This document shows, in pieces, positions 21,330 to 42,120 of a stretch of 64,000 bases of DNA; position 1 is the stretch's first letter; every line of letters begins with the position of its first letter. The stretch comes from an uncultured delta proteobacterium (GTDB lineage: Bacteria > Myxococcota_A > Polyangia > Polyangiales > Houyiibacteriaceae). Made by a program: the position numbers and the translations under genes. The stretch spans positions 142,348-206,347 of the forward strand of contig CAVQHC010000017.1 in NCBI GenBank assembly GCA_963712235.1, given 5' to 3'. Below the pieces are notes generated by a model. That model was not told the DNA's origin. It did no database searches and worked only from the letters and a program-made list of their open reading frames with translations.

Positions 21330-21355
21330 GCGGCGTGCGCTAGAGTCCGCCCTCG

Positions 21356-22693
21356 ATGAGAGAACAGCCTATTTACGATGTCGTCATCGCAGGCGCCGGC
21401 CCTGCTGGAGCCACCGCGGCGTATTTTCTCGCCAAGGGCGGAAAGCGCGTCGCCCTTCTCGAGAAGGCGTCCTTTCCTCGGGACAAGCGCTGCGGCGATG
21501 CCTGGTGCGAGCCTGCGCTCGAGATTCTCGAGGAGATGGGGGTCGTCCAGGAGCTCGACGCCGAGGGCGCGGTGCAATGGGTTCGCTCCGGTGGCCTGGT
21601 GTCGCCGTCGGGCCTGAGCTTCACCAGCCCCGATGAAGGCGAGCGCGAGGGCGCGCCGCGGGTGGCCGCCATCCGACGGATGGTCTGTGACGAACGCATT
21701 GCGCGGGCCGCCGCACGTGTCGGCGCCGAGCTGTTCGAGGGCGCATCGGTGCACGATGCCAAGCTCGTCGACGGGCGCTGGACGGTGCGATGCAAGGATG
21801 GGCGAAGGTTTTCCGCTCGATGCCTGATCGCCGCCGACGGAGCGAAGAGTAAGATCGCGCGTGCGCTCGGCGTCGTGACGACGGGCGCCAACAGCGTTGC
21901 GAGCCGGCAGTACATCAAGGGGGGCACACATTGCTTCAGCAGTGACGGCGTCCTGCTTTATCCGCACTATGTGCTTCCGGGGTATGTCGCGCTTTTTCGC
22001 CATTCGAACGGAGATATCGATCTCGGCTGTTACCTCCTTCCCGGAGGCCGAGTTCCGCTGACGAAGCTGAAGTCTCTGCTCCAAACCGAGGTCGCCTCAG
22101 ACCCGTACGTACGCGCAGCGCTAGGCGAACACGCCGAGCCGCTGGAACCTCCGGGCCTGTCTCCTCTTCGCCTTGGAGGCGAGCCCCGGACGCATGGGGA
22201 ACGACTCCTCGTCGTGGGCGATGCGGCAGGACAAACCGATCCACTCACGGGCGAGGGCATTCACACTGCGATGGTCGCCGCGAAAATCGCAGCCCGACTG
22301 CTCGACGAGGCCTTCGCTGCGGGGGACCTCAGTGCGCGGCGGCTATCGGCGTACCATCGCGCCTGGATGAGGCAGTTCGGTCGCGACTTCTCCATATCGG
22401 CCGCTGCCGGCCGGGCAATCCATCGCTTTCCGGTACTGCTGGACACCGCCGCGATTGCGGCCCAGCGCAACGGGGCGAGCTTCATGGACAACTTCGGCGC
22501 GGCCATGACCGGCGTGAAGCCGAAATCGCTTTTCCTGTCTCCGAGCATGTCGATTCCCCTCGTTGCGGCGCTGCTCGGACTCCTGAGCTCGCGAGCACAC
22601 ACCAAGTATGCGTTGGGACCGCGCGGCGAGCCGACGCACGCTTTCAGCTTCGCCATGAACGCCCTCCAAATGAGCACCGGCGGCGCGCTATGA
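21356..22693 (+). CDS. FAD-dependent oxidoreductase, geranylgeranyl-reductase family
   Basis: YDVVIAGAGPAGATAAYFLAKGGKRVALLEKASFPRDKRCGD dinucleotide-binding N-terminus, and a GDAAGQTDPLTGEGI motif. Confidence 0.8.
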   Translation: MREQPIYDVVIAGAGPAGATAAYFLAKGGKRVALLEKASFPRDKRCGDAWCEPALEILEEMGVVQELDAEGAVQWVRSGGLVSPSGLSFTSPDEGEREGAPRVAAIRRMVCDERIARAAARVGAELFEGASVHDAKLVDGRWTVRCKDGRRFSARCLIAADGAKSKIARALGVVTTGANSVASRQYIKGGTHCFSSDGVLLYPHYVLPGYVALFRHSNGDIDLGCYLLPGGRVPLTKLKSLLQTEVASDPYVRAALGEHAEPLEPPGLSPLRLGGEPRTHGERLLVVGDAAGQTDPLTGEGIHTAMVAAKIAARLLDEAFAAGDLSARRLSAYHRAWMRQFGRDFSISAAAGRAIHRFPVLLDTAAIAAQRNGASFMDNFGAAMTGVKPKSLFLSPSMSIPLVAALLGLLSSRAHTKYALGPRGEPTHAFSFAMNALQMSTGGAL

Positions 22694-24536: not shown

Positions 24537-24795
24537 TTATAACGCAAACCGGCCTGATGACGCAGCGCGCAAAATGTGCACTTCTTTCGCAAGAGAAATT
24601 CAAAGCGCATGATTTGCACTTCCGCTGGTGCCCCAGCGCATCGATCATTCGCGCCACCCAAGCAAGTCGAGAGAGATCATGGGACGTCGGGCGGGTGCAT
24701 CGTTTTGGCACAGAAGCTGCTTATCCGCAGCGTGCCCCTGCGTACCTGCAACTTGCCGCGCATATTCTGCGGGGGGGAAAACGGAAGACCTCTCG

Positions 24796-26463
24796 ATGAC
24801 TCACAGCAGTAGCCTCGACGCGGAATCGCTACGACTCGTTCTCGATTCGCTCGATGATTTCGCCAAAGCAAACCTCAGCGACGAGAAACTCCTCGAGCTC
24901 GATGAGAAGGACATCTTTCCAGAGGAGCTCGTCCGCGCGATCGGCAGCGAAGAGCTCGGAGTGCAGCTGGTGTTCATCCCCGAAGAGCACGGTGGGATGG
25001 GCGGCGGGGCCTTCGACGTGTATCGGGTCTGCGAAGCGATGGCCCGGATCGATGTCGGCCTAGCCACCGGCGTCCTGGCGACCTTTCTCGGCAGCGACCC
25101 CATCGTGTTCGGCGGGACGCCCGAGCAAAAAGAACACTGGCTGAGCCGTATCGCGGAAGAAGGTTTGCTCATGGCTTACGGGGCCACCGAACCAGCTGCC
25201 GGCAGCGACCTTGCCGCGCTCAAGACGGTGGCGGTCCCCGTCGAAAAGGATGGCAGCGTCGTTGGATACGAGATCACCGGGAACAAGCAGTGGATCTCGA
25301 ACGGCGGGTACGCCGATGTGTACACCGTGCTTGCGAAGGCACCGGGTGGTCCCAGCTGGTTTGTCGTCGAACGCGGCGCCGAGGGCTTTTCTGCGGGGAA
25401 ACCCGAGGACAAGCACGGTATCCGGCTGAGCAATACGACCGCCTTGGTTCTCGAAAACGTCTACGTCGACGCCGGTCAGCTCGTGGGGCTCGAGGAAGGC
25501 CAAGGGCTGCAGCAGGCTCAGCTGGTCTTCGGGTTCACGCGACTGATGGTGGCGGCCTTCGGGCTTGGCGCGGGCTGGGCGGCTCTCGACCGGACGATCG
25601 AATACTCGACCGAACGCATTCAAGGTGGGGCGCCGCTCTCGGAAAAGCAGGGCTACACGCACAAGCTCATCGTGCCGCATGCGGTGCGCCTGGAGGCCGC
25701 GCGAGCCTACATCGAGCAAACGGCAGAGGCCATCGACAAGGGCGGCGACGACTTGCTGAACACCGAGGGCGCGATCGCCAAATACCTCGCGAGCGAGGCG
25801 GGCAACGCCGCGGCAGACGCAGCCATTCAAGGGCACGGCGGCTACGGGTACACCAAAGAGTACATGGTCGAGAAGATCAAGCGCGACGTTCGAATCACCA
25901 CGATCTACGAGGGCACCTCCGAAATCATGGAAATGACGATCGGACGCGACCGCTGGCAGCATCACCTCAAGACCCGCGGGCAGCACTATCACGACCTCGG
26001 GCGGCGGCTCGAAGGCGTACACAGCGAGCACCCCAAGGTCGGTGCCGACATCGCGGCGCTGGCCGCACACGCCCTCGCAGAAGTCATGGAACGCGCACGC
26101 GAGAAACGTCTCACGCGCAACCAGCACGTATTGTTTCGAATCGGTGAGCTCGCCTCCTATGTCGAAGGTGCGGCGGCGTTTGCTCGACGCGCAGTCCGTG
26201 CCGAGCTCGATGAGCTCAATCCAAAGTCCCCAAGGCGATTTTCGCCGCCGGCTGTTGCGGCAATGGCGCGGGTTTTCGCGCGTGAAGCCGCGCAGCGCGT
26301 TGCCGTAGACGGCATGCGTTGGGTCATCGGCGCCGAAGCGCCGGGGAGCGCAGACGTCCCGTCGCTCGAAACGAGCGCGGGCCTGTCGAACGTTTATGCA
26401 GCCCAAGCGGGGTTGATCGAAGACATGAATCAGGTGGGGGACGCGCTTTACGAGCGCTCCTGA
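24796..26463 (+). CDS. acyl-CoA dehydrogenase family protein (555 aa, with C-terminal extension)
   Basis: Contains [37 protein letters not shown] and [14 protein letters not shown]. The ATG at 24796 ([12 protein letters not shown]...) is in frame within ORF 24628... Confidence 0.9.
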
Positions 26464-26482: not shown

Positions 26483-29400
26483 ATGCAAGATCAGGTACAT
26501 CGAGCCATAGCTGTCGTCGGGGTCGGCGCAGTACTTCCGGATGCACAGAACGCCAAGGAGCTCTGGAACAACGTTTCAACCGGGCGCTACAGCATCAGCG
26601 AAACACCCGTCGACCGTTGGGACCCGGCGCTTTATTACGATGCAGACCCAAAGGCCCCCGACAAGACCTATTCGAAGATCGGGGGCTGGGTTCGCGAGTT
26701 CAACTGGGAGCCCCTGAAGTGGAAGCTGCCGATTCCGCCGAAGGTGGCGGAGTCGATGGACCGCACGCAGAAGTGGTCGATCATGTCGGCGCGAGAGGCG
26801 CTTCTCGATTACGGCTATCCAGAGCGCCCGCTCGATGGCGATCGAACCGCGGTGATCCTCGGGAACGCCATGGCAGGCGACCAGCATTACAAGACGGCGC
26901 TTCGCATCTTTTTTCCCGAGTTCTCGCGTGAGCTCGACGGAGCGCCGAGCTTTCAAGCGCTCCCAGGGGACGTCAAAGCCGCAATCGTCGAAGAAACGAT
27001 GGGACGCATGCGGGAGCACTTTCCGACCATCACCGAGGACACGATGCCCGGCGAGCTCGCGAACATCATCGCCGGCCGTGTGGCGGCGGTCTTCAACTTT
27101 CACGGTCCCAACTTCACGGCAGATGCGGCCTGTGCGTCGGCCATGGCCGCCTTCAGCGCTGCCATCTCGGGGCTCGAAGAAGGGGACTACGACGCCGTGC
27201 TCACCGGCGGCATCGACAGCAACATGAGCGCGCCGAGCTACACGAAGTTCTGCAAGATTGGCGCGCTCTCGGCCACCGGGACGCGGCCTTACGACGAAGG
27301 CGCCGACGGTTTCGTGATGGGCGAAGGCGCGGCGGTCTTTCTTCTAAAGCGTTTGGAAGACGCCGAGGAAGCGGGCGACAAGATCTACGCCGTGGTTCGG
27401 GGAATCGGCGGGTCGAGCGACGGCAAAGGCAAGGGGATCACCGCGCCCAACCCGATCGGACAGAAGCTCGCGATCGAGCGCGCATGGGCTCATGCCGGCG
27501 AGGATTTGGCGACGGTGAGCCTGATTGAGGGCCACGGCACGTCGACGCGGGTTGGCGATGTGGTCGAGGTGCAAAGTATGGTCGACGCGTTCGCCGATGC
27601 GGGGCTGCCCAATTCGAGCGTTCCAATCGGCTCGGTCAAGTCGAACATCGGTCACCTCAAGGGAGCCGCTGGCGCCGCCGGCCTGCTCAAAGCCACCCTC
27701 GCACTGCACCACAAGCAGCTGCCCCCGAGCATCGGATTCCAGACACCCAACCCGAAGATCGGGTTCGGTCACATCCCGTTTTACGTCAACACCGAGCTCA
27801 GGCCTTGGGATGACTTCAAAGAAGTTCGGCGAGCGGGCGTCAGCGCATTCGGTTTCGGAGGGACGAATTTCCATGCCGTCCTCGAAGAGCACGTGCCTGG
27901 GAGGATTCAACGAAAGAAGCGGACCTCGGTATCGGTGCCCTCCGGCTCCTCGACGCCAACGGCGACCGGCGCCGTTGCGATGGCTGACAAGGCCCCGATG
28001 CGCGGTTCTTTGGTCCTGGGCGCCGGCTCGACTAAGGAGTTGGCGATCAAGCTCGATGCGGTGCTCGAAGACGCGAAGGCCGGGCGCGCGCCCAATCGCC
28101 AGCCGCCAGCCGCTTCGGATCTCCATGCCGCGGGAAGGCTGGCGATCGACTTCGGTGACGCAGCCGAGCTCGCCAAGAAGGCGACGAATGCCGCCAAGGG
28201 GCTTCGCGCCGACAACGCGGCGATGTGGAAGGCGCTGCGAGCGCAGGGCATCTTTTACCGAACGGGGGCCGCACCAAAAACAGCGTTCCTTTTCACGGGC
28301 CAGGGTTCGCAATACGTGAACATGCTGCGAGAGCTTCGCGAGGTGGAGCCGATCGTGGCTGACACTTTCCGAGAAGCCGACGACGTGATGAAGCCACTGC
28401 TCGGTCAGCCGCTGAGCGAAATCATCTTCGTCGATCCGAACGACAAAGCAGCGGTCGCCGAAGCGGACGAGGCGCTTCGGCAGACCGCGATCACCCAGCC
28501 GGCGGTGCTCGCAACCGACCTTGCGCTGACGCGGCTTCTGGCCGCTTATGGCACGACCCCTGACATGGTCATGGGACATAGCCTCGGAGAGTACGGTGCC
28601 TTGGTGGCGAGTGGGGCGCTCGGCTTTCGCGAGGCGCTCGAGGCGGTCAGCGCGCGCGGACGGGAGATGACCAAGGTCTCGGTCGACGACAACGGCTTGA
28701 TGGCCGCCGTCCTCGCGCCGATTGATGAGGTGCAGGCGATTGTGAGCTCGGTCGATGGATACGTGGTCATCGCCAACATCAACAGCTTCGGCCAGTCTGT
28801 GATTGGTGGTTCGACCCCGGGTGTGACGGCGGCGATTGAGGCGATCGCGAAGGCCGGCCACCAGGCTATCCCGCTCCCGGTCAGTCACGCGTTTCACACC
28901 GAGGTCGTTGCCCCAGCAAGCGGCCCGCTCAAAAAAGAGATCGCACGGCTCGGCATCGAATCGCCGAAGATTCCAATCGTCGCCAACGTCAGCGGTGAGT
29001 TCTACCCGATGGGGCCGAACGTCGCCGAAGAGATGATCGAGCTCCTCGGTCGGCAAATCGCCTCGCCGGTGCAATTCGTGAAGGGGCTCGAGACTTTGTA
29101 CGACGCGGGGGCACGGGTCTTCGTCGAAGTCGGTCCGAAGTCCGCTCTGGCGCGATTTGCCGAAGATGTGCTTGGCAGCAAGGCCGACTCCCTGTCCCTG
29201 TTCACCAACCACCCGAAGATCGGGGACGTCGCGGCCTTCAACGCAGCGCTCACCGGGCTCTATGCGAGCGGGCACGGCGCGCCCAAGAGCGAGCGCAGAT
29301 TGCAAGAGCTGAGCAGCAACGGAGCAGCGACCCGCGTGGCTGCTGCAGCGGCTCCGGCCGTGCCCCCGACGCTTACCGTTTCGGCGCGTCGGGCGCCCCA

Positions 29401-32400
29401 ACGGGCATCATCCGCCGTGGGAGGCGATCGCTATGCCCAACTCGGCCGCTTGTTTGCCGATTTCCTCGACCAAGGGATGGAGATCTATCGCGGCGGGACC
29501 GCCGTCGATTCCGGAGAGCCGGTGGTCGTCACCGGAGCGACCATCGGACTGCCCGGCGGGGAGAAGGTCTTTGCGGACGAAAACGTCGACCGGATGCTGC
29601 ACGGTCAGAGCTTCATCGACGCGATCCCGGTGGGGCTTCGTCGTGCGATGGCGGACAAGAAGATCACCCGCCTCGTGAAATCGGAAAAAGGCGGGGCGCG
29701 CTTCGAAACGATCGACTCGCCCGCCGACGTGATCAAGCTCGCCGGCCGGGCTGGCGACATCGCCTTGTCGAGCGATTTCGGCATTCCCGAGGAGCGCGCG
29801 GCCGCGATGGACTCGACGACACGAATGGCCGTTGCCGCAGGAGTGGAGGCGCTACGCGACGCGGGGATTCCGCTCGTGATGCACTACAAGACGACGACCA
29901 AGGGAACGAAGCTTCCCGACCGCTGGGGCTTACCCGCGGAGATGCAAGACGAGACCGGCGTCATCTTCGGTTCGGCGTTCCCCGGCTCCGACATGTTCAT
30001 GGGCGAGGCTCGGCGATACTACGAGAGCGAGACGCAGGAGAGACTGCTCGATGAGCTGCGCAGCTTAAGGGCGCGCATGGCAAGCAACGGCGGCGACCCG
30101 CTAGGCGCAGAAATCGACCGTCGAATCGCGGAAATCGAAAGCGACCGTCAGCGCGATCCGTACACGTTCGACCGGCGCTTCCTGTTCAAAGCGCTGTCGA
30201 TGGGCCACTCTCAGCTCGCGGAGTACATCGGCGCGCGCGGGCCGAACACCCAAATCAACTCGGCGTGTGCCAGTGGAACGCAGGCTGTGGCGCTAGCCGA
30301 GGATTGGATCATGCGCGGTCGGTGCAGGCGCGTCGTGGTCGTCACCGCGGACAACGTGACGAGCAACAATTTGATGGAATGGATCGGTGCGGGTTTCCTG
30401 GCCAGCGGCGCCGCGGCGACGGACGAGGTACTCGAGGACGCCGCCCTTCCCTTCGATCGTCGACGTCACGGCCTCATCCTTGGAATGGGCGCTTCGGGCA
30501 TGGTCATCGAAAGCGCGGACGCGGCCCGCGAACGCGGTCTGAGGCCAATCGCACAGGTGCTCGGTACGGTGACCGCCAACAGCGCCTATCACGGCAGCCG
30601 TTTGAACATCGAGCACATTCAGGGTTTGATGGAAAAGCTGGTCGCAGACTGTGAGGCGCGGCACGGCATCGATCGCGCGGCGATCGCGCCGAACACGGTA
30701 TTCGTTTCACACGAGACGTACACACCGGCACGCGGCGGTAGCGCTCAGGCGGAGATCAGCGCGCTTCGCAAGGTCTTTGGCGCCAACGCGGACAGCATCG
30801 TAATCGCAAACACGAAGGGCATGACGGGTCATGCGATGGGTGCGGGGGTGGAAGACGCGACCGCCATGAAGATTCTCGAGACGGGTTTGGTCCCGCCGGT
30901 GGCAAACTTCAAAGAGGTGGACCCGGAGCTAGGTGCGCTAAACCTCTCGAGAGGCGGGAGCTACCCCGTTCAGTATTCACTTCGACTGGGCGCTGGGTTC
31001 GGCTCCCAGATTAGCCTGTCGCTCTGCCGTTGGGTCCCGAGCCCAGACGGGCGTCGACCGGCGCCAAGGGAGCTGGGCTACACGACTCGGGTCGAGGATC
31101 GAGCGCTCTTCGAACGCTGGGTTGCGTCCGCCACCGGCTACGCCTCGCCGGAGTTGGAAGTGGTGAATCGGACCCTGCGGGTGAAGGATCAGGGTCCCTC
31201 GGCCGCAGTCGCGGTGTCAGCGTCAACGGCAGTGTCAGCGTCAGTGCCAGCGTCAGTGCCAGCGTCAGCGCCAGTGCCGGCGTCAGCGCCAGTGCCGGCG
31301 CCGGCGCCGGCCATCGACCCCGTGACGGCGAAGGTCTTGTCGATCGTCTCCGAGCAGACGGGATATCCCTCCGACATGCTCGACCTCGAGCTCGACCTCG
31401 AGGCCGACCTCGGGATCGACACCGTCAAGCAGGCGGAGACCTTTGCTGCAGTGCGCGAGGCGTACGATATCGAGCGCGAGGACAATCTCGAGCTTCGGGC
31501 GTTCCCGACGCTCGGGCACGTGGTTCAGTTCGTCCGCGACCGCCGACCAGACTTGATGGCCGCGCCATTGCCAGCGCCAGCGTCAGCGCCAGCGTCAGTG
31601 TCAGTGCCAGTGCCAGTGCCAGTGCCGGCAATCGACCCCGTGACGGCGAAGGTCTTGTCGATCGTGTCCGAGCAGACTGGGTATCCCTCCGACATGCTCG
31701 ACCTCGAGCTCGATCTCGAAGCAGACCTCGGGATCGACACCGTCAAACAAGCAGAGACCTTTGCTGCAGTGCGCGAGGCGTACGATATCGAGCGCGAGGA
31801 CAATCTCGAGCTTCGGGCGTTCCCGACCCTCGGGCACGTGGTTCAGTTCGTCCGCGACCGCCGACCAGACTTGGCGGCAGCGCCAGTGTCAGCGCCAGCG
31901 CGAGTGTCAGCGTCAGTGCCAGCGCCAGCGCAGCGACCCGGTGACCGCGAAGGTACTCGCGATCGTGTCCGAGCAGACTGGGTATCCCTCCGACATGCTC
32001 GACCTCGAGCTCGACCTCGAAGCGGACCTCGGGATCGACACCGTCAAGCAGGCCGAGACCTTTGCCGCCGTGCGCGAGGCGTACGATATCGAGCGCGAGG
32101 ACAATCTCGAGCTTCGCGACGTTCCCGACCCTCGGGCACGTGGTGCAGTTCGTCCGCGACCGCCGCCCGGATCTGGTGCCAGCGCCAGCGCCAGCGTCAG
32201 TGCCAGCGTCAGTGCCAGCGCCGGCGTCAGAAGATTTGATCACCCAGAAGGTGCTCGAAGTCGTCGCGTCGGTCACCGGCTACCCGCCCGTAATGCTCGA
32301 GCTCGACCTGGACCTCGAGGCGGACCTCGGAATCGACACGGTCAAGCAAGCCGAGACTTTTGCCGCCGTGCGCGAAGCGTATGGAATTCCTCGCGACGAC

Positions 32401-35022
32401 AAGCTCGAGCTTCGAAATTTCCCGACGCTCCATCACGTCATCGCCTGGGTGAAAGAATCCATTCCCGAGGCTGCGGCGTCGGCAGCCGCTCAGGCCGAAG
32501 CCGCCGACGCTTCACCTGCCGCAGTGGCAGCGCACGAACCGGCGGAAGGGCTGCGCCGTGTTCCCGTGGCCGTGCTCAGGCCTCCGCTATCCGCCTGCAA
32601 GCCGACCGGCGTCAATTTCGTCGAAGGGGCACGCGTCGTCGTGATGGCCGATCGGGGACCGGTCGGAAAGGCGCTGGTCAAGCAGTTGAAGAAGCTCGGC
32701 GTCGAGCTGCTCGTCGTCGACGACACACCTTCTGCGGAAGAGCTCAGTCTGAGGCTCGAAGGCTGGATGAAGGACGGTCCGATCCTCGGCGTTTACTGGC
32801 TCCCGGGGCTCGATCGAGAAGACCCAATCGCCGATCTCTCCCCGGACGACTGGACCAGCGCGGTCCAAAGGCGCGCCAAGCTCTTGTTCACGACGATGCG
32901 CACGCTTTACGAGCAGATCTCGGGGCCGGGCAGGTTCCTGATGTCGGCGACGCGCTTTGGCGGGAAGCACGGCTTCGACGAGCCTGGCGCGGTGGCGCCA
33001 CTTGGAGGCGCCGTTGGCGGCTTCACCAAGACTTACAAACGCGAGAAACCCGAGGCGACGGTCAAGGTCGTCGACTTCGAGGCGAAAGTGAAGGCAAGCA
33101 CCGTCGCCGAACGACTCATCGCGGAGACCTTGTCGGACCCCGGGGCATGCGAGCTTGGCTACACCGGAGACGAACGCTGGGCGATCACGGCATCTTTTGA
33201 AGCGGCGCCGACCTCGCGCCCGTTCGCACTCGGGCAAGACAGCGTCTTTGCGATCACTGGCGCTGCCGGGTCGATCGTGTCTGCGATTGTCCAGGACCTG
33301 GCCAAGGCGTCGGCTGGAACCTTCCATCTGCTCGACCTCACGCCCGAGCCGGATGCCGACGACCCCGACCTTCAACGCTTCGCGAGCGACCGCGATGGCC
33401 TTCAGCGTGAGCTCTTCGAGCGGCTGAAGCAGAGCGGAGAGAAGGCGACGCCGGTAGCGGTGCAACGCCTGCTCAGCGAGCTCGAGCGAAAGCACGCTGC
33501 GCTCCGGGCCATCGAATCGGTTCGCGCTGCGGGCGGCAAGGTGCACTATCATTCCGTAAATCTGCTGGATCGCGAGGCGGTCGCTGCGACGATCGAGGTC
33601 ATTCGGGAGCAGAGCGGACGTATCGATGCCCTGGTGCACGCGGCCGGGCTCGAGATCAGTCACTTCCTACCCGACAAGAAACCGTCGGAGTTCGATTTGG
33701 TCTTCGATGTTAAGGCGACCGGCTGGTATCACCTCTTGTCGTCGATCGGAGACATGCCGCTCGGCGCCGCGGTGGTCTTCAGCTCGATTGCGGGTCGATT
33801 CGGCAATGGCGGTCAAACCGATTACAGCGCCGCCAACGAGCTTCTGGCCAAGTCGGTTTCGAGCTTCCGAAACGCGCGGCCAGGCACGCGGGGCATCGTC
33901 GTCGACTGGACCGCCTGGGCAGACATCGGCATGGCATCCCGCGGATCCATCCCCAAGATGATGGAGTTGGCCGGCATCGACATGTTGAAGCCTGCGGACG
34001 GCCTTCCGGTCGTACGTACCGAGCTCGAAGCGGGCACATCCGGTGAGGTCGTGATTGGCGGCGCGCTCGGAATCCTCATGCAGGAATGGGACGAAACCGG
34101 CGGGCTCGACCCGAGGAACCTTCAAGCGGTCCGTCGAGGCCCGATGAGCACGCATCTGGTCTCGATGGGCATTCATTCCGGTCTCCAGGTCGAGACTACG
34201 CTGGACCCGCGGGAGCAGCCTTTCCTCTACGACCACAAGATCGGCGGTACGGCCGTCTTGCCGGGTGTGATGGGGCTCGAGGGCTTCGGTGAGATCAGTG
34301 AGGCGCTTTTTCCCGACTGGCACGTCCGAGCTATTGAAGGCGTCGATTTCCTCGCGCCGTTCAAGTTCTATCGGGACGAGCCCAGAACGCTAACGCTGAC
34401 CGCGCAGTTCACCACCGACGGCAACGAGCTGCTGGCGCGCTGCCGCTTGATCGGCACGCGACCGATCCTGGGTAGAGACGAGGTGAAGACCCATTTCGCC
34501 GCAACCGTCCGGCTCGCGCGCGAGCCCGTCGACAGACACAGATCGGAAGCCCCCCCTCACGCCTCCGACGCGAGCGTGGCCGACAAGGACATCTACCAGG
34601 TTTACTTTCATGGCCCGGCCTATCAGGTGTTGGACACCGCATGGCGTGACAATGGCGTGGTGGTCGGCCGAATGCGCGAGCAACTCCCCGACGATCGCCA
34701 GCCAGCGGACCTCGAAATGGTGACGGAGCCACGGCTGGTCGAGCTCTGCTTCCAGACCGCAGGTGTATGGCAGATCGGCACGACCGGCCGGATGGGACTG
34801 CCGCAACACATCGACGAGCTCGAATGCGTTCGGTCCGCCGATGCGGTCGAAGGGCGGCTGCACGCCGTGGTGAGTCCGCGGGATGGTGGAAAATCGTTCG
34901 ACGCGCATGTGACGGATGAAGCCGGCAACCTCTACGTGGTACTCCGTGGATACCAGACGGCGGAGCTCCCCGAGGACGTGGACCCAGAAAAGCGGAAGCC
35001 TCTCCGCGCGGCGATGGACTGA
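26483..35022 (+). CDS. iterative-type type I polyketide/fatty-acid megasynthase, KS-AT-KS-ACPx4-KR-DH, carrying two +1 frameshifts around ACP3
   Basis: KS1 spans 26498-27890 (Cys codon 27131 in DAACASA; His 27533 and 27653). AT spans 28284-29160 (GQGSQ; GHSLGEY, Ser codon 28580). KS2 spans 29515-31035 (INSACASG, Cys codon 30266; [20 protein letters not shown]). The ACP array spans 31316-32460. KR spans about 32610-34060 (ITGAAGSIV; Tyr codon 33823). The hot-dog DH spans about 34140-35019 ([14 protein letters not shown], His codon 34234). ORF pieces: 26483..32239, 31761.. (ACP3 body) and 32062..35022. Confidence 0.9.
31316..32460 (+). repeat. tandem array of four carrier-protein (ACP-like) coding repeats with Pro/Ala/Ser/Val linkers
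   Basis: The unit [79 protein letters not shown] is repeated with offsets of 318, 301 and 298 nt. Copies 1-3 are nearly identical in DNA. Copy 4 has diverged. Confidence 0.9.
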
Positions 35023-35028
35023 ACGAAG

Positions 35029-38000
35029 ATGGGCAATATGACCTTCACGCGAATTGCAATCGTAAACCGCGGCGAACCTGCGATGCGATTCATCATCGCC
35101 GCGCGGGAGTACACGCAGGAGCATCGCGAGGCGCTTCACACGATCGCGCTTTACACGGATCCCGACCGCCGAGCGATGTTCGTACGCGAGGCCGACGAAG
35201 CGTACGCGCTCGGCCCTGCAACCTTCGTGACCAAGGACGGCCATCGCAAGTCGAGCTACCTCGACTACGACCGCCTCGAGCGCGCCCTCATCGAAACACG
35301 TGCCGAAGCGGTTTGGCCAGGATGGGGCTTCGTGGCCGAGCACCCCAGGTTTGCAGACCTCTGCGAACGACTCGGGCTCGTCTTCATCGGGCCGACGGGG
35401 GACATGATGCGCAAGCTGGGCGACAAGATCGCCTCCAAGCAGCTCGCAGAAAAGGCGGAGGTTCCGGTCGCACCCTGGAGCGGTGGTGAGGTGGCGACGC
35501 TCGACGATGCGCGTACGCACGCGGCGCGCCTCGGCTACCCTCTGATGATCAAGGCGACCGCAGGTGGCGGAGGCCGTGGGATCCGCCGCGTACAAAGCGA
35601 GTCCGAGCTGGCTGACGCGTTTCAAAGCGCGAGATCGGAGGCCGAGAAGTCTTTCGGAGACCCTGCGGTGTTCCTAGAGCGAATGGTGACTGGGGCGCGC
35701 CACGTCGAGGTTCAGATTATCGCGGACGACGAAGGAACGACTTGGGCGCTGGGCGTGCGCGACTGTACCGTCCAACGGCGCAACCAGAAGATTCTCGAAG
35801 AGACCCCTTCGCCGGCGCTGAGCGAGGAGCAACAGACTGAGCTCGAGCAAGCCGCAATCCGGCTGACCCAAGCGATCGGCTATCGAAACGCGGGAACGGT
35901 GGAATTCCTTTATCACCAGCCGACGCGGCAGTTCTCGTTCATGGAGGTCAACGCGCGGCTGCAGGTCGAGCACCCGGTCTCGGAGATTGTCACCGGCGCC
36001 GACCTCGTGAAGCTACAGATCCACGTCGCGCGAGGCGGCCGACTGGACGCGGTACCCCCCGTCAAGCGTGGGTACGCGATCGAAGCGCGGCTGAACGCCG
36101 AGGATCCGGAAGACAACTTCGCGCCCTCGCCTGGGCTCGTCGAACAACTTCGGCTGGCGAGCGGCCCCGGCCTGCGGGTCGATACCGGCATTGCGGAAGG
36201 CGATCGAATCCCGTCCGAATTCGATTCGATGATCGCCAAGATCATCGCCCACGGGCGCACGCGTGAGGAGGCGCTCGCCCGGCTTCGGCGGGCGCTCCTC
36301 GAAAGCGAGGTCGTGATTCGCGGGGGCGCCTCCAACAAGGGCTTTCTTCTCGGCTTGGTGGACAATCCAGCGGTTCGCTCTGGCGAGGTCGATGTGGGCT
36401 GGGTCGACCGCCTCGTCGCTGAGGGGAGGCACCTGCCCCGCGAGGGAGCGGAACTCGCCCTCCTGCAGGCTGCAATTGAAACCTATGACGCAGAGCTCGA
36501 TGTGGAGCGCGCGCAGTTCTACACCGCCGCGGCGCGAGGGCGTCCGCAGGTGGAAGACACACACGGACAGGCGATGGAGCTCACCCATGCCGGACATACC
36601 TACGAGCTCACCGTCTTTCGCCTGGGCCCAGACCGCTACCGGATCGACGTCGATGCGCAGCGCATCGAAGTCGTGGTGGAACGCTTCGAAGGCGCAGAGC
36701 GTCGGCTCCGGATCGGCAATCGGCACGCGCGAATTCAGTCGGTCGACCAGGGGCTGAGTGTCCTCGTGGAGGTCGACGGTGTGCCGCACCGCATCTCTCG
36801 AGACCGTGGCGGCCTCGTCCGTGCACCATCGCCAGCAGTCGTGGTCAATGTGCTCGTTTCGGAGGGCCAAGACGTCGCGGTTGGAGATGGGCTCGTCGTC
36901 CTCGAAGCGATGAAAATGGAAATGGTCATCGGCGCGAAGTTTGCCGGCAAGGTGCGCGAGGTCATGGTGATGAACAACGTGCAGATCGCGATCGGCGCGC
37001 CGATGTTGCTCATCGAGCCGAGCGGTGGCGAAGCCGCTTCTGCGTCGGACGAGCGCTTGAGCTTTTCCACCCTCTCGGTCGAGCAGGATCAAGACTATTC
37101 GGTCTACCGGCACAATCTAATCGAGCTCAAACGCCTAATCATGGGCTTCGACGCGGACCGTGTGGAGCTTTCGCGTGAAATCGAGGATGGCAACATCGTT
37201 ACCGCAAGCGTGGCGCCCGACGATTCTGGACGCCTTGCGCTCGAAGACCAGATCCTCAACGTCTTCGTGGATCTGTGCTCTTTGTTCCGCCGGCAGTCGC
37301 GCTACGAGGACGGGTCTGAAGACTTCGGAAAACACACCGCCGAAGAGTATTTGTTCACGTTCCTCCGCGACCTCGTCGTTCGTCGTGAAGAGGAGCTCCC
37401 GGCATCGTTCGTCTCCAAGCTTCGTAGGGCCATTGGCCACTTCGGTCTGGCCGAAATTCAGCGCAACGCCGAGCTGCAAGGGGTGCTGTTTCGGATCTGC
37501 AAAGGAAACAAGCGGATCGACGAACAGGTCGCACCAGTGCTGAGCTTGCTGCAGGGCCGCCTCGATAACATCGGCACGCTTCGCGAGGCGGTTGGAGACG
37601 ACTTCCGCGAGCTCTTGTCTCGAATGATCATCGAGACTCAGGATCGCTACCCCGCCATCCATGATCTGGCACGCGAGCTGCAGTATCACTACTTCGAGCG
37701 CCCAATTCAGGAGCGCGTCGAAAAAGAGACACTAGCCAAGGTCGATCGGATTCTCGCGCAGCTAGTCGCGGACCCGCAGGGCCCGGACAGAGCCGCACGC
37801 ATCGCAGAGCTCGTCGCCGTTCCCCAACCTCTCAAGGGGTTCATGTCGCGGCGGCTGGAGCAGGCGAGCCATGACGAACGTCTGATCATGCTCGAGACCC
37901 TCGCCCGCCGATACTACAAGATGTGCGATCTGAGGGACTTCGAACTGCTCTCCGACGGCGGAATTGACATTTCCAAGTGCTGGTATGAGTACGAAGGCAA

Positions 38001-40590
38001 GAAGATTCACTTCTTCGCCACGCACGTCGCCGGCGAGCAGCTGCCCGATGCGATTTCCGAGCTGAAGCGTCACGTCGAAGCTGCTCCAGAAGCCGACGAC
38101 GTCGTCGTAGATTTCTATGTGTTGCATCGCGACCAGCTCGAGAGCCCAGACAAGACGTCAGAGGGGCTTACGCGCCTGCTCGGAACGTTCGAGCCCGCAA
38201 GACCGATCCGTCGCGTCATCGTCTCCGTAACTGGAAGTGAAACCGGGCTCGGAGCAAACGAGTTGCAGGCGTTCACGTTTCGAATGGGTGAAGATGGCTT
38301 TCGCGAGGAGCTGATTTACCGCGGCATGCACTCTATGCTGAGCAAACGTCTGCTCTTGTGGCGCCTAAAAGACCTGAGCACAGAGCGAGTCGATTCGGCA
38401 GAAGACGTGAATCTCTATCGTGTGACCGGAAAGGACGAGCGTCTGATTTGCCTCGCCGAGGTGCGCGATCTGACGCCGGTCCGTGACGCCTCGGGCCGCG
38501 TAGTCGCCCTCCCCAACCTCGAGCGAACGCTTTCGAAGTGCCTAATTGCCATTCGACGCGAGCAGAGCACGAGAACCTCGGGAAGGCGCTTTCAATGGAA
38601 CCGAGTTCACCTCTTCCTCTGGCCGCCGCTGGACCTGAGCCAAGAAGAGATCAACGGCATCATTCACAAGCTCGCACCGGAGACGACCGGACTTGGACTC
38701 GAGCGAATCGTCGTCCAGGGGACCATTCGCAACCCAGCAAGCGGCAAGCTCGAGGAGAAGCTGCTCGACGTGTCGAATCGTGGCCGCCAGGGACTCAGCG
38801 TCCGGCTTCGCGACCTTCCAACCCATCCGATGCGGCCCCGCAGCGCGTACGAGCAAAACGTCGTCCGGTTGAGCCAGCGGGGTTTGATGCACCCGTACGA
38901 GATCATCTCCATGCTCACGCCTGGAGAGGACAGTGACGTTCAGTCGGATTTCCCGCATGGCGAGTTTCGCGAGCTCGACCTCGACGAGGCCAATCAGCTC
39001 GTCCCCGTGGAAAGGCCCCCTGGAAACAACAGCGCCAACATCATCGTCGGCCTGCTAACCAGCTTCACCGACAAGTATCCCGAAGGAATGACGCGCGTTG
39101 CGCTCTTGGGAGACCCGAGTCGAGGCATGGGCGCTCTCGCCGAACCCGAGTGCCGCCGCATCATTGCCGGCCTCGACCTCGCCGAGCAGATGCGGGTACC
39201 CTTGGAATGGTACGCAGTCTCCGCGGGCGCCAAGATTTCCATGGAAAGCGGTACGGAGAACATGGACTGGATCTCGGCGGTCTTGCGACGACTGATCGAG
39301 TTCACGCAGGCAGGGTCCGAGGTGAACGTCCTGGTCTGCGGCATCAACGTTGGCGCCCAGCCGTACTGGAACGCCGAGGCCACGATGCTCATGCACACCA
39401 AGGGCATCCTCATCATGTGCCCGGGCAGTGCGATGGTGCTCACCGGCAAGCAGGCGCTCGACTACTCGGGGGGCGTATCGGCCGAAGACAACACCGGAAT
39501 CGGCGGATACGATCGAATCATGGGGCCCAATGGTCAGGCGCAATACGCTGCGCGCGACCTCGCGGACGGCTGCCACATTCTTCTTCGTCACTACGACCAC
39601 AGCTACGTCATGCCCGGCGAACGTTTTCCGCGGCGCGCCGCGACGAAGGATGCAATCGACCGGGACGTTTGCGATTCGCCGCACGGCCATATCGGTGCTT
39701 CGACCTTTGCGACCGTGGGCGAGGTCTTCAATCCAATGACCAATCCAGGCCGAAAACGCCCCTTCGACATTCGCAAGGTAATGCGTGCCGCGACGGACCA
39801 GGACCACGACGTGCTCGAGCGATGGTATGGGATGCGCGACGCGGAGACCGCCGTGGTCTGGGACGCTCACATCGGCGGGTTTCCAGTCTGTCTGATTGGA
39901 CTCGAATCACAGCCCTTGTCCCGCCTCGGCTTCGTCCCGGCGGATGGGCCCGCAGTTTGGACGGCGGGAACCTTGTTCCCGATGTCTTCGAAGAAGGTGG
40001 CCCGAGCAATCAACGCAGCAAGCAACAACCGGCCCGTGGTCGTACTGGCGAACTTGTCCGGCTTTGACGGCTCTCCAGAGTCGTTGAGGCAGCTTCAGCT
40101 CGAGTACGGGGCCGAGATTGGCCGCGCCGTGGTCAACTTCAAGGGGCCGATGGTGTTCTTGGTGATCTCACGATACCACGGTGGGGCCTTCGTTGTGTTC
40201 TCCACCAAGTTGAATCCGTCGTTGGAAGTGTCGGCGCTCGAGCATACCTATGCCTCGGTCATCGGCGGCGCGCCGGCAGCGGCGGTGGTGTTTGCCGGTT
40301 CCGTGCGCAAGCGAACCCTCTCGGACGAGCGGATCATGGCGCTGCAGCAGGAGCTCGATCGGGCTGTCGGTGCCGAACGCGTGGCGCTCCGGGATCGCCT
40401 CGGCAAAATGGAGAAGGTCGTGCACTCGGAGAAGCTGCGCGAGGTGGCCGAGGAATTCGACAGCGTCCACAGTGTGCATCGAGCGCAAGAGGTCGGCTCC
40501 GTCCACCGAATCATTCCTGCCAGCACTCTGCGGCCGTACTTGGTGGACGCGATCGAGCGCGGGATTCAACGCGAGCAGTCTCAGGGATGA
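35029..40590 (+). CDS. single-polypeptide biotin-dependent acyl-CoA carboxylase (BC - BCCP - central region - CT), 1853 aa
   Basis: The N-terminal biotin carboxylase/ATP-grasp domain reads FTRIAIVNRGEPAMRFI...GYPLMIKATAGGGGRGIR...MEVNARLQVEHPV. The biotinyl motif is VVLEAMKMEMV (Lys codon 36913). The C-terminal carboxyltransferase reads ...GMGALAEPECRRI...VCGINVGAQPYWNAEATM...GFDGSPESLRQLQLEYGAEI... Confidence 0.9.
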   Translation: MGNMTFTRIAIVNRGEPAMRFIIAAREYTQEHREALHTIALYTDPDRRAMFVREADEAYALGPATFVTKDGHRKSSYLDYDRLERALIETRAEAVWPGWGFVAEHPRFADLCERLGLVFIGPTGDMMRKLGDKIASKQLAEKAEVPVAPWSGGEVATLDDARTHAARLGYPLMIKATAGGGGRGIRRVQSESELADAFQSARSEAEKSFGDPAVFLERMVTGARHVEVQIIADDEGTTWALGVRDCTVQRRNQKILEETPSPALSEEQQTELEQAAIRLTQAIGYRNAGTVEFLYHQPTRQFSFMEVNARLQVEHPVSEIVTGADLVKLQIHVARGGRLDAVPPVKRGYAIEARLNAEDPEDNFAPSPGLVEQLRLASGPGLRVDTGIAEGDRIPSEFDSMIAKIIAHGRTREEALARLRRALLESEVVIRGGASNKGFLLGLVDNPAVRSGEVDVGWVDRLVAEGRHLPREGAELALLQAAIETYDAELDVERAQFYTAAARGRPQVEDTHGQAMELTHAGHTYELTVFRLGPDRYRIDVDAQRIEVVVERFEGAERRLRIGNRHARIQSVDQGLSVLVEVDGVPHRISRDRGGLVRAPSPAVVVNVLVSEGQDVAVGDGLVVLEAMKMEMVIGAKFAGKVREVMVMNNVQIAIGAPMLLIEPSGGEAASASDERLSFSTLSVEQDQDYSVYRHNLIELKRLIMGFDADRVELSREIEDGNIVTASVAPDDSGRLALEDQILNVFVDLCSLFRRQSRYEDGSEDFGKHTAEEYLFTFLRDLVVRREEELPASFVSKLRRAIGHFGLAEIQRNAELQGVLFRICKGNKRIDEQVAPVLSLLQGRLDNIGTLREAVGDDFRELLSRMIIETQDRYPAIHDLARELQYHYFERPIQERVEKETLAKVDRILAQLVADPQGPDRAARIAELVAVPQPLKGFMSRRLEQASHDERLIMLETLARRYYKMCDLRDFELLSDGGIDISKCWYEYEGKKIHFFATHVAGEQLPDAISELKRHVEAAPEADDVVVDFYVLHRDQLESPDKTSEGLTRLLGTFEPARPIRRVIVSVTGSETGLGANELQAFTFRMGEDGFREELIYRGMHSMLSKRLLLWRLKDLSTERVDSAEDVNLYRVTGKDERLICLAEVRDLTPVRDASGRVVALPNLERTLSKCLIAIRREQSTRTSGRRFQWNRVHLFLWPPLDLSQEEINGIIHKLAPETTGLGLERIVVQGTIRNPASGKLEEKLLDVSNRGRQGLSVRLRDLPTHPMRPRSAYEQNVVRLSQRGLMHPYEIISMLTPGEDSDVQSDFPHGEFRELDLDEANQLVPVERPPGNNSANIIVGLLTSFTDKYPEGMTRVALLGDPSRGMGALAEPECRRIIAGLDLAEQMRVPLEWYAVSAGAKISMESGTENMDWISAVLRRLIEFTQAGSEVNVLVCGINVGAQPYWNAEATMLMHTKGILIMCPGSAMVLTGKQALDYSGGVSAEDNTGIGGYDRIMGPNGQAQYAARDLADGCHILLRHYDHSYVMPGERFPRRAATKDAIDRDVCDSPHGHIGASTFATVGEVFNPMTNPGRKRPFDIRKVMRAATDQDHDVLERWYGMRDAETAVVWDAHIGGFPVCLIGLESQPLSRLGFVPADGPAVWTAGTLFPMSSKKVARAINAASNNRPVVVLANLSGFDGSPESLRQLQLEYGAEIGRAVVNFKGPMVFLVISRYHGGAFVVFSTKLNPSLEVSALEHTYASVIGGAPAAAVVFAGSVRKRTLSDERIMALQQELDRAVGAERVALRDRLGKMEKVVHSEKLREVAEEFDSVHSVHRAQEVGSVHRIIPASTLRPYLVDAIERGIQREQSQG

Positions 40591-41255
40591 CGATACGCTG
40601 GAGGCTCCTTGCTGCATCCGAGCTGCCACAAGGGGACGGCTGGCTCATAGCAGAAGAGCGGAAGGTCCTAGCGGGACTCCGGTTTCAAAAGAGGCGCGCT
40701 GACTGGCGACTCGGACGGTTGGTAGCGAAGCGTACCGTGTCTTCAGTCGTCGGGGTCGATGACCTAAATCGGATTCACATCCTCGCGGCAAAAGACGGCG
40801 CCCCCGAAGCGTGGATCGACGGACAAAGGCTCGACTCGGAAATCTCGATCAGCCATCGCAACGGGCTGGCCGCGTGCGCGATTGCGCCGGGCGCTGGCGT
40901 CGGCTGCGACCTGGAGGCCGTCGAGCCGCGGAGCTCACGCTTCGTGAATGACTTCTTCACCGAGCGCGAACGCAGGGTGGTTGGGACGACGGCCGAGGCT
41001 CATCGAGATCGTGTCGTTGCCTTGACCTGGAGCGCCAAGGAAAGCGCACTGAAGGTTTTGCGGGTGGGTCTGCGGCGGGACACGCGTAGCGTCGAAGTGG
41101 TACTCGACCATGTCGAAGCGGCTGAAGCCGGCTGGCATCCATTGCGCGCCGCTGTCAGGCCAGAGGGCCAAAACTTTCGAGGTTGGTGGCGCCAAGAAGC
41201 CGGGATCGTGTTGACGATCATGAGCGACGAGGAAACCCAATCCATCGCCAACTAG
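40587..41255 (+). CDS. Sfp-type 4'-phosphopantetheinyl transferase
   Basis: Contains ISISHRNGLAACA, GVGCDLE and WSAKESALKVL motifs. The start overlaps the carboxylase stop (ATGA at 40587-40590). Confidence 0.85.
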   Translation: MTIRWRLLAASELPQGDGWLIAEERKVLAGLRFQKRRADWRLGRLVAKRTVSSVVGVDDLNRIHILAAKDGAPEAWIDGQRLDSEISISHRNGLAACAIAPGAGVGCDLEAVEPRSSRFVNDFFTERERRVVGTTAEAHRDRVVALTWSAKESALKVLRVGLRRDTRSVEVVLDHVEAAEAGWHPLRAAVRPEGQNFRGWWRQEAGIVLTIMSDEETQSIAN

Positions 41256-41260
41256 CCGAA

Positions 41261-41536
41261 TCAGGACTTGCTGAACCAGCCGCGCAGTCGGCTCAAAATG
41301 CCGCCCTTTTCTTTCGCGATCTGTTTTTGAATCTTCCCGAGCGTCCTCGATGAGGTTTCGAGCGGATCAAAGCTCGAAGCGAGCGCAGCAATCGAATCTT
41401 GAAAGTCTTTGACGACTTGGGCGAGGCTGGGGTCGGCCGCGAGGAGCGCTTCGAGCTCTTTTTCGTCTTCCTCTGAGGCCGCACCGGCCGCATGGAGCGC
41501 CGCTAGGAGCTCCGCTCGTTCTCGCTCTTCGTTCAT
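41261..41536 (-). CDS. small soluble anti-sigma-factor-like protein (RskA N-terminal-like, no TM segment)
   Basis: ELLAALHAAGAASEEDEKELEALLAADPSLAQVVKDFQDSIAALA resembles anti-sigma N-terminal domains. The start overlaps the ECF sigma stop by 4 nt. Confidence 0.45.
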   Translation of the reverse strand: MNEERERAELLAALHAAGAASEEDEKELEALLAADPSLAQVVKDFQDSIAALASSFDPLETSSRTLGKIQKQIAKEKGGILSRLRGWFSKS

Positions 41537-42120
41537 GTCTTCATCGCCCTGTGAATGATGGGGAGAGTGGTGCGCAGCGAGCGCATGCCCGCGAGGATTC
41601 GAGACTTGACCGTGCCGACGGGTAACTTGAGCGTGTCGGCGATCTGGCCGTGCGACATCCCTTGGAAATACGAGAGCTCGAGCACGGCCCGCTGCTCTGC
41701 ATCGAGGCGCTGAAACGCTTGCCTGAGGGCCTGGTGCCAGCGCGTCGATGAGGCCATCACATCGGGACGTTTTCGCTCGGTCATCAGAGCATCCCCTTCC
41801 TGGTACTCGAATTGCCGATCGCCATGGCGGCGCTTGCGCGCGCGAAGTGAATCCAGGGCACGGCTTCGGGCGACGGTGACAACCCAGGCGATGACGCTGC
41901 CTCTAGAGCTGTCGAATTGAGAGGCGCGCCGCCAGAGCTCCACGAACACGTCCTGTAGGAGCTCCTCTGCCTCCGCAGGAGAACCAAGCATCTTCGTCAG
42001 GAGTGCAAGAACGGTGCTCGCATACTGCTCGTAGAACGCGCTCAAGGCTCGATCCGAATCGCCCGCCGCCATCGCCGCGACGAGCTCCTCCGGGTCTTGG
42101 GGACGTGCTTCGGTCATCAT
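41533..42120 (-). CDS. ECF-type RNA polymerase sigma-70 factor
   Basis: Region 2 reads LLQDVFVELWRRASQFDSSRGSVIAWVVTVARSRALDSLR. Region 4 reads LSYFQGMSHGQIADTLKLPVGTVKSRILAGMRSLR. Confidence 0.9.
   Translation of the reverse strand: MMTEARPQDPEELVAAMAAGDSDRALSAFYEQYASTVLALLTKMLGSPAEAEELLQDVFVELWRRASQFDSSRGSVIAWVVTVARSRALDSLRARKRRHGDRQFEYQEGDALMTERKRPDVMASSTRWHQALRQAFQRLDAEQRAVLELSYFQGMSHGQIADTLKLPVGTVKSRILAGMRSLRTTLPIIHRAMKT

Follow-up and report, generated by a model that had tools for sequence, protein, structure and literature searches.

The four tandem acyl carrier protein (ACP) repeats of a PfaA-like megasynthase from an uncultured delta proteobacterium (GTDB lineage Bacteria; Myxococcota_A; Polyangia; Polyangiales; Houyiibacteriaceae; assembly GCA_963712235.1) carry a threonine at the position where phosphopantetheine is normally attached to a serine. 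Judging from sequence comparisons and structural models, this threonine is probably the native phosphopantetheine acceptor, loaded by a dedicated group II phosphopantetheinyl transferase (PPTase) encoded in the same operon. The repeats lie at positions 31316-32460 of the window, by which we mean the whole 64,000-nucleotide stretch of DNA analysed (contig CAVQHC010000017.1, positions 142,348 to 206,347 of the forward strand), and they are best read as working acyl carrier domains of an iterative megasynthase similar to polyunsaturated fatty acid (PUFA) synthases. To our knowledge, phosphopantetheine has always been found on serine in the acyl, peptidyl and aryl carriers characterised so far, and we know of no characterised Sfp-type PPTase that loads anything but serine.

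The repeats are arranged head-to-tail, each about 300-318 nt long (TRF period 318), with units of about 80 amino acids (aa) separated by Pro/Ala/Ser/Val linkers that are encoded by GCCAGY hexamers. Copies 1 to 3 share 91-96% of their DNA sequence with one another, and copy 4 is about 69% identical to them. The first-pass annotation of this DNA, made from the sequence alone, had claimed a threonine at the attachment position of all four copies, had seen no serine within three residues of it, and had pointed to the synonymous codon of the diverged fourth copy (ACG rather than ACC). The codons and their positions (Table 1) were verified on the sequence, as were the absence of a nearby serine in every copy and the divergence of copy 4.

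Several comparisons place this threonine at the acceptor position. Single ACP copies match the Pfam PP-binding family (PF00550) with 26.3 and 28.3 bits against a gathering score of 20.8, and the ACP unit aligns to one ACP repeat of the PfaA profile TIGR02813 (profile positions 1311-1380). In phmmer searches against all PDB chains, the threonine stands opposite the serine of the D-S-L/I motif in the PigH, Streptomyces, Aquifex and Escherichia coli ACPs. In an AlphaFold2 model of the ACP (44 homologues, pLDDT 92.6), helix II begins with Thr36; Foldseek relates this model to solved ACPs, including those of E. coli and T. maritima, with a TM-score of about 0.8 and an rmsd of about 1.5 Å. The model therefore has the small helical bundle with an acceptor at the N-terminus of helix II that defines carrier proteins; what the repeats lack is the serine that PF00550 has as attachment residue (D-S-L type), the residue being threonine in four of four window copies. 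A profile alignment could have put the attachment site at a different residue, as the first-pass annotation recognised, but by the PP-binding, phmmer and model comparisons it is the threonine and no other residue that falls on the acceptor-serine column. Alternative attachment residues were sought and rejected: the homologue alignments, including one of 266 complete domains, hold no conserved serine elsewhere in the ACP domain, and the other invariant hydroxyl residues, in TGYP and PTL, occupy positions of typical structural ACP motifs.

The threonine is conserved far beyond the window. When one genome was scanned for each GTDB species, at least 588 related loci were returned, the majority from Acidobacteriota and others from Myxococcota, Chloroflexota, Actinomycetota, Gemmatimonadota, KSB1 and more. 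The genomes in which they lie are mostly uncultured metagenome-assembled genomes (MAGs), many from soil and peat samples; Korobacteraceae and Chloroflexota genomes are among the loci listed, and the listed Actinomycetota include an isolate, Spirillospora sp. NPDC048911. All 266 complete ACP domains from 81 fetched loci and the window have threonine, as do all 272 motif copies from 83 related loci of several phyla, with serine in none. These 272 copies use all four threonine codons (ACC 132, ACG 112, ACT 17, ACA 11), and copies of one locus differ in their threonine codon in 49 of 81 loci. The motif DLG[IV]DTVK is found in all of the best 120 homologues of copy 1 and throughout the ACP copies of 120 homologues of the ACP-ketoreductase-dehydratase (ACP-KR-DH) product, in which apparent serine matches turned out to be the KR motif FSSIAGRFG and not the ACP site; the recognition motif DLGxDTVKQAE is invariant in the domain alignments. 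Such uniformity far exceeds what chance would give: serine, though a single nucleotide away from every threonine codon, is absent from these copies, so that selection favours threonine over serine. The first-pass view that the residue is conserved, and not an error copied among repeats, is thus borne out across phyla.

Since the word-indexed homologue searches show no protein longer than about 1.75 times its query, full-length orthologues were taken from a set of 1.84 billion cluster representatives that was searched with a profile; E <= 1e-3 was reached by 6,814 hits and E <= 1e-30 by 1,462, and the best 148 were retrieved. Of these best 148 representatives, 96 are threonine-only and about 16 more have threonine along with a gap or one degenerate copy. 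Another 29 are serine-only, comprising canonical PfaA proteins with DLGIDSIKRVEI, a group with DLGIDSIKKAQL, and P0332 with DLGIDSVKVAEIF, and three mix serine and threonine. Intact domains carry threonine (423) or serine (166) and nothing else at the acceptor column, and wherever the site is D, G, Q or P the copy has lost the whole motif. Arrays are typically uniform within one protein, canonical PfaA arrays being all-serine and arrays resembling the Type R synthases described below all-threonine. The column thus tolerates only hydroxyl residues, threonine or serine, as expected of an O-linked acceptor.

The three mixed proteins (P0321, P0317 and P0264) have threonine-type ACPs and one serine-type or divergent ACP. 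In P0321, DLGVDSIKQAEAF precedes two DTVKQAE copies, and in P0317 a GITSIKMVEV domain is found at the terminal end beside threonine-type ACPs; both acceptor types are therefore possible on one polypeptide. Some of the PPTase-synthase fusions described below carry further threonine-type ACPs close to the N-terminus, as in P0367 (aa 528) and P0275 (aa 509 and 627).

By BLASTP, the serine-only protein P0332 shares 54% identity with the threonine-only P0359 across about 2,000 aa, and the two carry the same type of fused PPTase. P0332 is also the sister of P0359 within the threonine group in a crude, midpoint-rooted neighbour-joining tree without support values, which was used only for this BLASTP-backed pairing. 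It therefore appears that at least one reversal to serine has occurred inside the threonine clade, and the nesting of an all-serine protein among threonine relatives argues for interchange of serine and threonine at a hydroxyl acceptor rather than for an error. Serine in homologues, which the first-pass annotation would have taken as a sign of error or of a strain-specific change, is confined to minority lineages such as P0332. P0332 (3234 aa, NCBI MCY3414055.1) is labelled as a Candidatus Heimdallarchaeota MAG, a label that could reflect horizontal transfer or a binning contaminant.

Such a reversal, the existence of mixed serine/threonine proteins and the very similar fused PPTase domains of serine-type and threonine-type orthologues would all be in keeping with another explanation, in which any broad-spectrum Sfp-type PPTase loads threonine and the residue is near-neutral or mildly adaptive, fixed by concerted evolution, with no specialised pair of enzyme and carrier. 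A neutral threonine, however, would not be expected to hold at 272 of 272 copies across phyla with serine one mutation away and four codons in use. The PPTase is also kept in, or fused to, almost every cluster, as would fit a requirement for an enzyme of its own, but pfaE is likewise retained in ordinary pfa clusters. We regard this explanation as unlikely.

In the window itself the repeats do not share one reading frame, a point that the first-pass annotation did not mention. The four copies fall in three frames (mod-3 = 2, 2, 0 and 1), with two +1 frame switches inside the array, at about 31932-31942 and 32122-32126; the open reading frame (ORF) 26483-32239 ends within the array, copy 3 is broken after ...LELR, and the KR and DH domains are read from ORF 32062-35022. 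Two frameshifts and a copy truncated in frame could be the marks of an artefact or a dead gene, in which the threonine would be meaningless. Yet intact single-ORF homologues carry the same threonine motif; one of them, P0291 (2851 aa), is collinear with 26483-35016 across frames 2, 3 and 1. Two close relatives, L082 and L083, whose ACP4-KR-DH products are 97% and 89% identical to that of the window, have four copies with frame changes at different positions and further breaks elsewhere, the L082 carboxylase being split into four ORFs, a pattern typical of long-read indel errors. Apart from the array, the window shows no break in the 16.6-kb operon, and the threonine is conserved in hundreds of independent genomes. 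As the frame breaks of L082 and L083 fall at other positions, the window frameshifts are likely indel errors of a repeat-rich long-read assembly, and in reality the synthase is probably encoded by a single ORF of about 2,860 aa. A dead gene is accordingly a most improbable explanation.

The PPTase encoded at the end of the operon has the characters of the Sfp type, namely a Pfam ACPS match (58.2 against a cutoff of 25 bits), the pseudo-dimeric two-lobe fold, and the motifs with the Mg2+ ligands and the catalytic Glu and Lys; its match to 4PPT_N is under the cutoff (21.8 against 27), and it scores 34.7 bits against the cutoff of 370 for the HetI equivalog NF042922. Its AlphaFold2 model (pLDDT 93.4) has TM-scores of 0.7-0.8 to AASDHPPT, PptT, PptAb and Sfp (2cg5, 4qjl, 4mrt), and in the alignment with human AASDHPPT its GCDLE stands opposite GIDIM and its WSAKESALK opposite WALKESFIK. 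At least 97% of 69 orthologues keep the catalytic motifs, which do not vary in another alignment, of 38 sequences. Fold and motifs, (I/L)SxSH, GxDxE and WxxKE(S/A)xxK, are those of Sfp, AASDHPPT, PptT and HetI; unlike these enzymes, the family of the window PPTase is syntenic with, or fused to, threonine-only carriers. Where the flanking sequence suffices, the gene is almost always syntenic, and about 16 of the best 148 representatives carry the PPTase as a C-terminal extension of the synthase; 14-15 of these fusions have threonine-type arrays, some with one degenerate copy. The fusions of a PPTase to a threonine-type synthase include P0365, P0367, P0386, P0299, P0373, P0323, P0357, P0371, P0333, P0385, P0308, P0359 and P0278; P0367, which is threonine-only, has the Pfam order KS-AT-PP-binding x4-KR-DH-ACPS (KS, ketosynthase; AT, acyltransferase). 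No serine-type carrier was found in the cluster flanks, save an unrelated AcpP beside a fab-like KS in L049. Because the PPTase is fused to threonine-ACP synthases, with no alternative carrier in the clusters, an argument of the Rosetta-stone type suggests that it serves the threonine domains.

Some observations weigh against loading of the threonine. The S36T mutant of E. coli ACP is used as an unmodifiable apo form and is not known to be modified by AcpS, so at least the AcpS-type enzymes appear not to load threonine. In the alignment of fused PPTases, which also included an Sfp sequence, no obvious threonine-specific change of the active site is visible, and enzymes fused to serine-type and to threonine-type synthases look alike; this similarity fits either a broad competence of the family or a very subtle specificity. 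Gene conversion, moreover, homogenises tandem copies, and the independent units behind the count of 272 are genomes and not copies. The E. coli mutant has the same substitution at the same position as the window ACPs, the first residue of helix II, but it is engineered, whereas the window threonine is a natural, selected state paired with a group II PPTase; a plasmid pBAD-CBP-ACP(S36T) is listed in PMC10607373.

These domains might, then, never be phosphopantetheinylated at all, being instead apo pseudo-carriers whose role is structural, scaffolding or regulatory, with the PPTase serving a carrier elsewhere in the genome. The exchange of serine for threonine is, after all, the classic way of making E. 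coli ACP unmodifiable, and some members of the family contain ACP-like copies that have degenerated, the site being D, G, Q or P, so that copies without function can persist. In contrast to those copies, the threonine domains keep DLGxDTVKQAE invariant, and their acceptor column takes threonine or serine only. The KS, AT, KR and DH domains all require a tethered substrate, and the synthase that contains them has no other carrier domain; the PPTase, furthermore, is fused in cis to threonine-only synthases. We therefore consider it quite improbable that the domains remain unmodified. The first-pass annotation had offered two options, loading of threonine by the PPTase or non-canonical domains. 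Synteny, motifs, fold, fusions and the lack of a serine-type carrier favour loading, which is also the most economical reading; unmodified domains would be hard to reconcile with an unvarying recognition motif, with the many relatives that join enzyme and synthase in one chain, and with a synthase that offers no other carrier.

If the threonine is loaded, the operon PPTase would bind CoA-Mg2+ through the Asp and Glu of GCDLE, and the Glu of WSAKES would deprotonate the threonine hydroxyl, transfer of 4'-phosphopantetheine then giving O-phosphopantetheinyl-threonine. The AT would load malonyl units, derived from the co-encoded carboxylase, onto the arm, and KS, the second ketosynthase-like domain (KS2), KR, DH and probably the acyl-CoA dehydrogenase (ACAD)-like flavoprotein would elongate and process the chain, the multiple ACPs presumably raising throughput as in PUFA synthases. 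Why threonine should be used is a matter of speculation: it might insulate the carriers from the housekeeping AcpS or from hydrolases, make the phosphodiester more resistant to beta-elimination, or restrict the motion of the arm.

By published description and gene order, the window operon matches the Type R secondary lipid synthases, which consist of a pfaA homologue with its domains in the order KS-MAT-CLF-ACP(3-6)-KR followed by a PPTase gene and are known from Koribacter versatilis, Solibacter usitatus, Elusimicrobium minutum and Roseiflexus spp. (Shulse & Allen 2011, PLoS One 6:e20146, PMC3098273). In Koribacter an acetyl-CoA carboxylase gene lies between synthase and PPTase (PMC3098273). 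The window operon likewise encodes KS and AT, another KS-like domain, an array of four ACPs and KR, with DH in addition, and has the carboxylase between synthase and PPTase; the phyla of the related loci and of the Type R hosts overlap (Acidobacteriota, Chloroflexota). It differs in that the domain corresponding to the Type R 'CLF' keeps its active-site Cys, and the Type R paper lists neither the upstream ACAD gene, syntenic in nearly all loci here, nor genes for an electron transfer flavoprotein (ETF) or Fe-S protein. The words serine and threonine are absent from its text (PMC3098273). No prior report of a threonine acceptor was found in open-access full text, so that one in a subscription journal could have been missed; the Type R paper was the only relevant one returned, and open-access hits on the swf polyketide synthase (PKS), on ACP engineering and on a DSL-motif preprint do not concern a threonine acceptor. 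The cluster type is thus already known, though uncharacterised, and the threonine acceptor was not found reported in the open-access literature.

PfaA itself (TIGR02813, motif DLGIDSIKRVEI) shares with the window synthase tandem ACPs with Pro/Ala-rich linkers, placed between AT and KR-DH, and D-L-G-I-D-x-[IV]-K-x-x-E in the ACP motif. The window synthase is set apart by its threonine in place of the serine acceptor and by the extra KS-like domain upstream of the ACPs. TIGR02813 is its best NCBIfam match, at 722.8 + 219.1 bits for the ORF pieces against a cutoff of 1010.1, and no pfaB, pfaC or pfaD companions were found nearby, with no PfaC- or PfaD-like ORF at 17.5-44.7 kb of the window. Since the score is under the cutoff and pfaBCD are missing from the neighbourhood, we judge on sequence grounds that the synthase is not a bona fide PfaA.

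The genes and domains of the operon are collected in Table 1. The ACAD and synthase genes are 19 nt apart, the synthase stop and the carboxylase start 6 nt apart, and the carboxylase stop overlaps the PPTase start by 4 nt (ATGA). Co-transcription of the PPTase, which the first-pass annotation had stated outright, is suggested by these distances alone; a promoter and terminator scan of the operon was uninformative, with 0 promoters and with terminator-like sites at background level. Nearly all related loci with sufficient flank show the order ACAD-synthase-carboxylase-PPTase, and identity between phyla is unusually high (60-70% for ACAD, 55-66% for KS-AT). The source annotations describe these proteins only as "SDR family oxidoreductase" or "acyl carrier protein".

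Table 1. Coordinates of the operon genes, synthase domains and ACP copies in the window
Feature	Position	Strand	Remarks
Acyl-CoA dehydrogenase family protein (611 aa)	24628..26463	+	first operon gene; Pfam Acyl-CoA_dh_N/M/1
PfaA-like iterative megasynthase KS-AT-KS2-ACPx4-KR-DH	26483..35022	+	three frames; Pfam domains
KS1	26501..27937	+	Pfam ketoacyl-synt, Ketoacyl-synt_C, KAsynt_C_assoc
Acyltransferase (malonyl-type AT)	28286..29188	+	Pfam Acyl_transf_1 2.8e-43; NCBIfam FabD-like
KS2	29490..31040 (approximate)	+	Pfam ketoacyl-synt and Thiolase_N on 29300-31320
ACP copy 1	31316..31558	+	Thr codon ACC 31421-31423; frame 2
ACP copy 2	31634..31876	+	Thr codon ACC 31739-31741; frame 2
ACP copy 3	31935..32175	+	Thr codon ACC 32040-32042; frame 0; broken by 1-nt insertion near 32122-32126
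ACP copy 4 (diverged)	32233..32460	+	Thr codon ACG 32338-32340; frame 1
Ketoreductase (KR)	33253..33924	+	Pfam KR 3e-27
PKS-type dehydratase (DH)	34174..34983	+	Pfam PKS_DH_N and PS-DH
Single-chain acetyl/acyl-CoA carboxylase BC-BCCP-CT (1853 aa)	35029..40590	+	
Sfp-type (group II) PPTase (222 aa)	40587..41255	+	Pfam ACPS 58.2 bits

KS1 has the active-site Cys (DAACAS) and the two His residues (HGTST, NIGHLK), and KS2 also keeps its Cys (NSACASG, at about 30260-30275, aa ~1262 of the PKS) and both His; going by these residues, KS2 may be a second active ketosynthase rather than a chain length factor (CLF). The carboxylase has the Pfam domains Biotin_carb_N, CPSase_L_D2, Biotin_carb_C, Biotin_lipoyl and Carboxyl_trans, is syntenic in most loci, and is presumed to supply malonyl-CoA. 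The ACAD-family protein, syntenic in nearly all related loci, has as best NCBIfam matches the acryloyl-CoA reductase AcrC and FadE, both far under cutoff; it is a candidate for the missing enoyl reductase or, alternatively, for a desaturase of the tethered chain.

For the flanking genes only Pfam-confirmed clusters were used, as single-linkage clustering was contaminated by antisense ORFs. In many Acidobacteriota loci, the ACAD gene is directly preceded by genes for ETF beta and ETF alpha (L035:1365-3278; about 37 loci, L005-L057), and a membrane Fe-S/CCG-domain oxidoreductase is encoded upstream of the ETF genes, at the 5' edge of about 35 loci; a full-length copy of it is found at L045:20228-22177, there downstream of the PPTase. 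The presence of these genes beside the ACAD gene implies an electron-transfer chain that either feeds the ACAD protein or drains it; they are absent from the window operon. A GMC-oxidoreductase-like gene follows the PPTase gene in 13 loci (e.g. L057:20555-22483), and its product could be a tailoring enzyme for the pathway product. In the window, genes for an AMP-binding protein (acyl-CoA/adenylate ligase) and an FAD-dependent monooxygenase are found at 19662-22693, on the same strand and about 2-5 kb upstream of the operon, an adjacency that is not conserved in other loci. On the minus strand, at 41533-43877, the operon end is faced by convergent genes for an ECF sigma factor and a Ser/Thr protein kinase, both of which the close relatives L082 and L083 have as well.

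A broader proposition, which we advance only tentatively, is that O-(4'-phosphopantetheinyl)-threonine could be the native linkage throughout a family of lipid/polyketide synthases that is widespread (no fewer than 588 species-level genomes and the Heimdallarchaeota-labelled relative), with co-encoded or fused Sfp-type PPTases that would be competent for threonine where AcpS-type enzymes are not, making carrier and enzyme an orthogonal pair and the first exception to a serine-only rule. Should the threonine be modified, the accepted chemistry of PPTases would widen. Carrier motif definitions, annotation rules and "dead-ACP" controls all presume serine, and automated pipelines probably mislabel or mis-score threonine carriers. 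If the proposition is true, the pair might serve as an orthogonal tagging system for protein labelling and synthase engineering, and the Type R lipid pathway would gain its first point of entry for biochemistry. This pathway is very common in Acidobacteriota and is also found in Myxococcota, Chloroflexota and Actinomycetota, and its product may therefore be an abundant environmental lipid.

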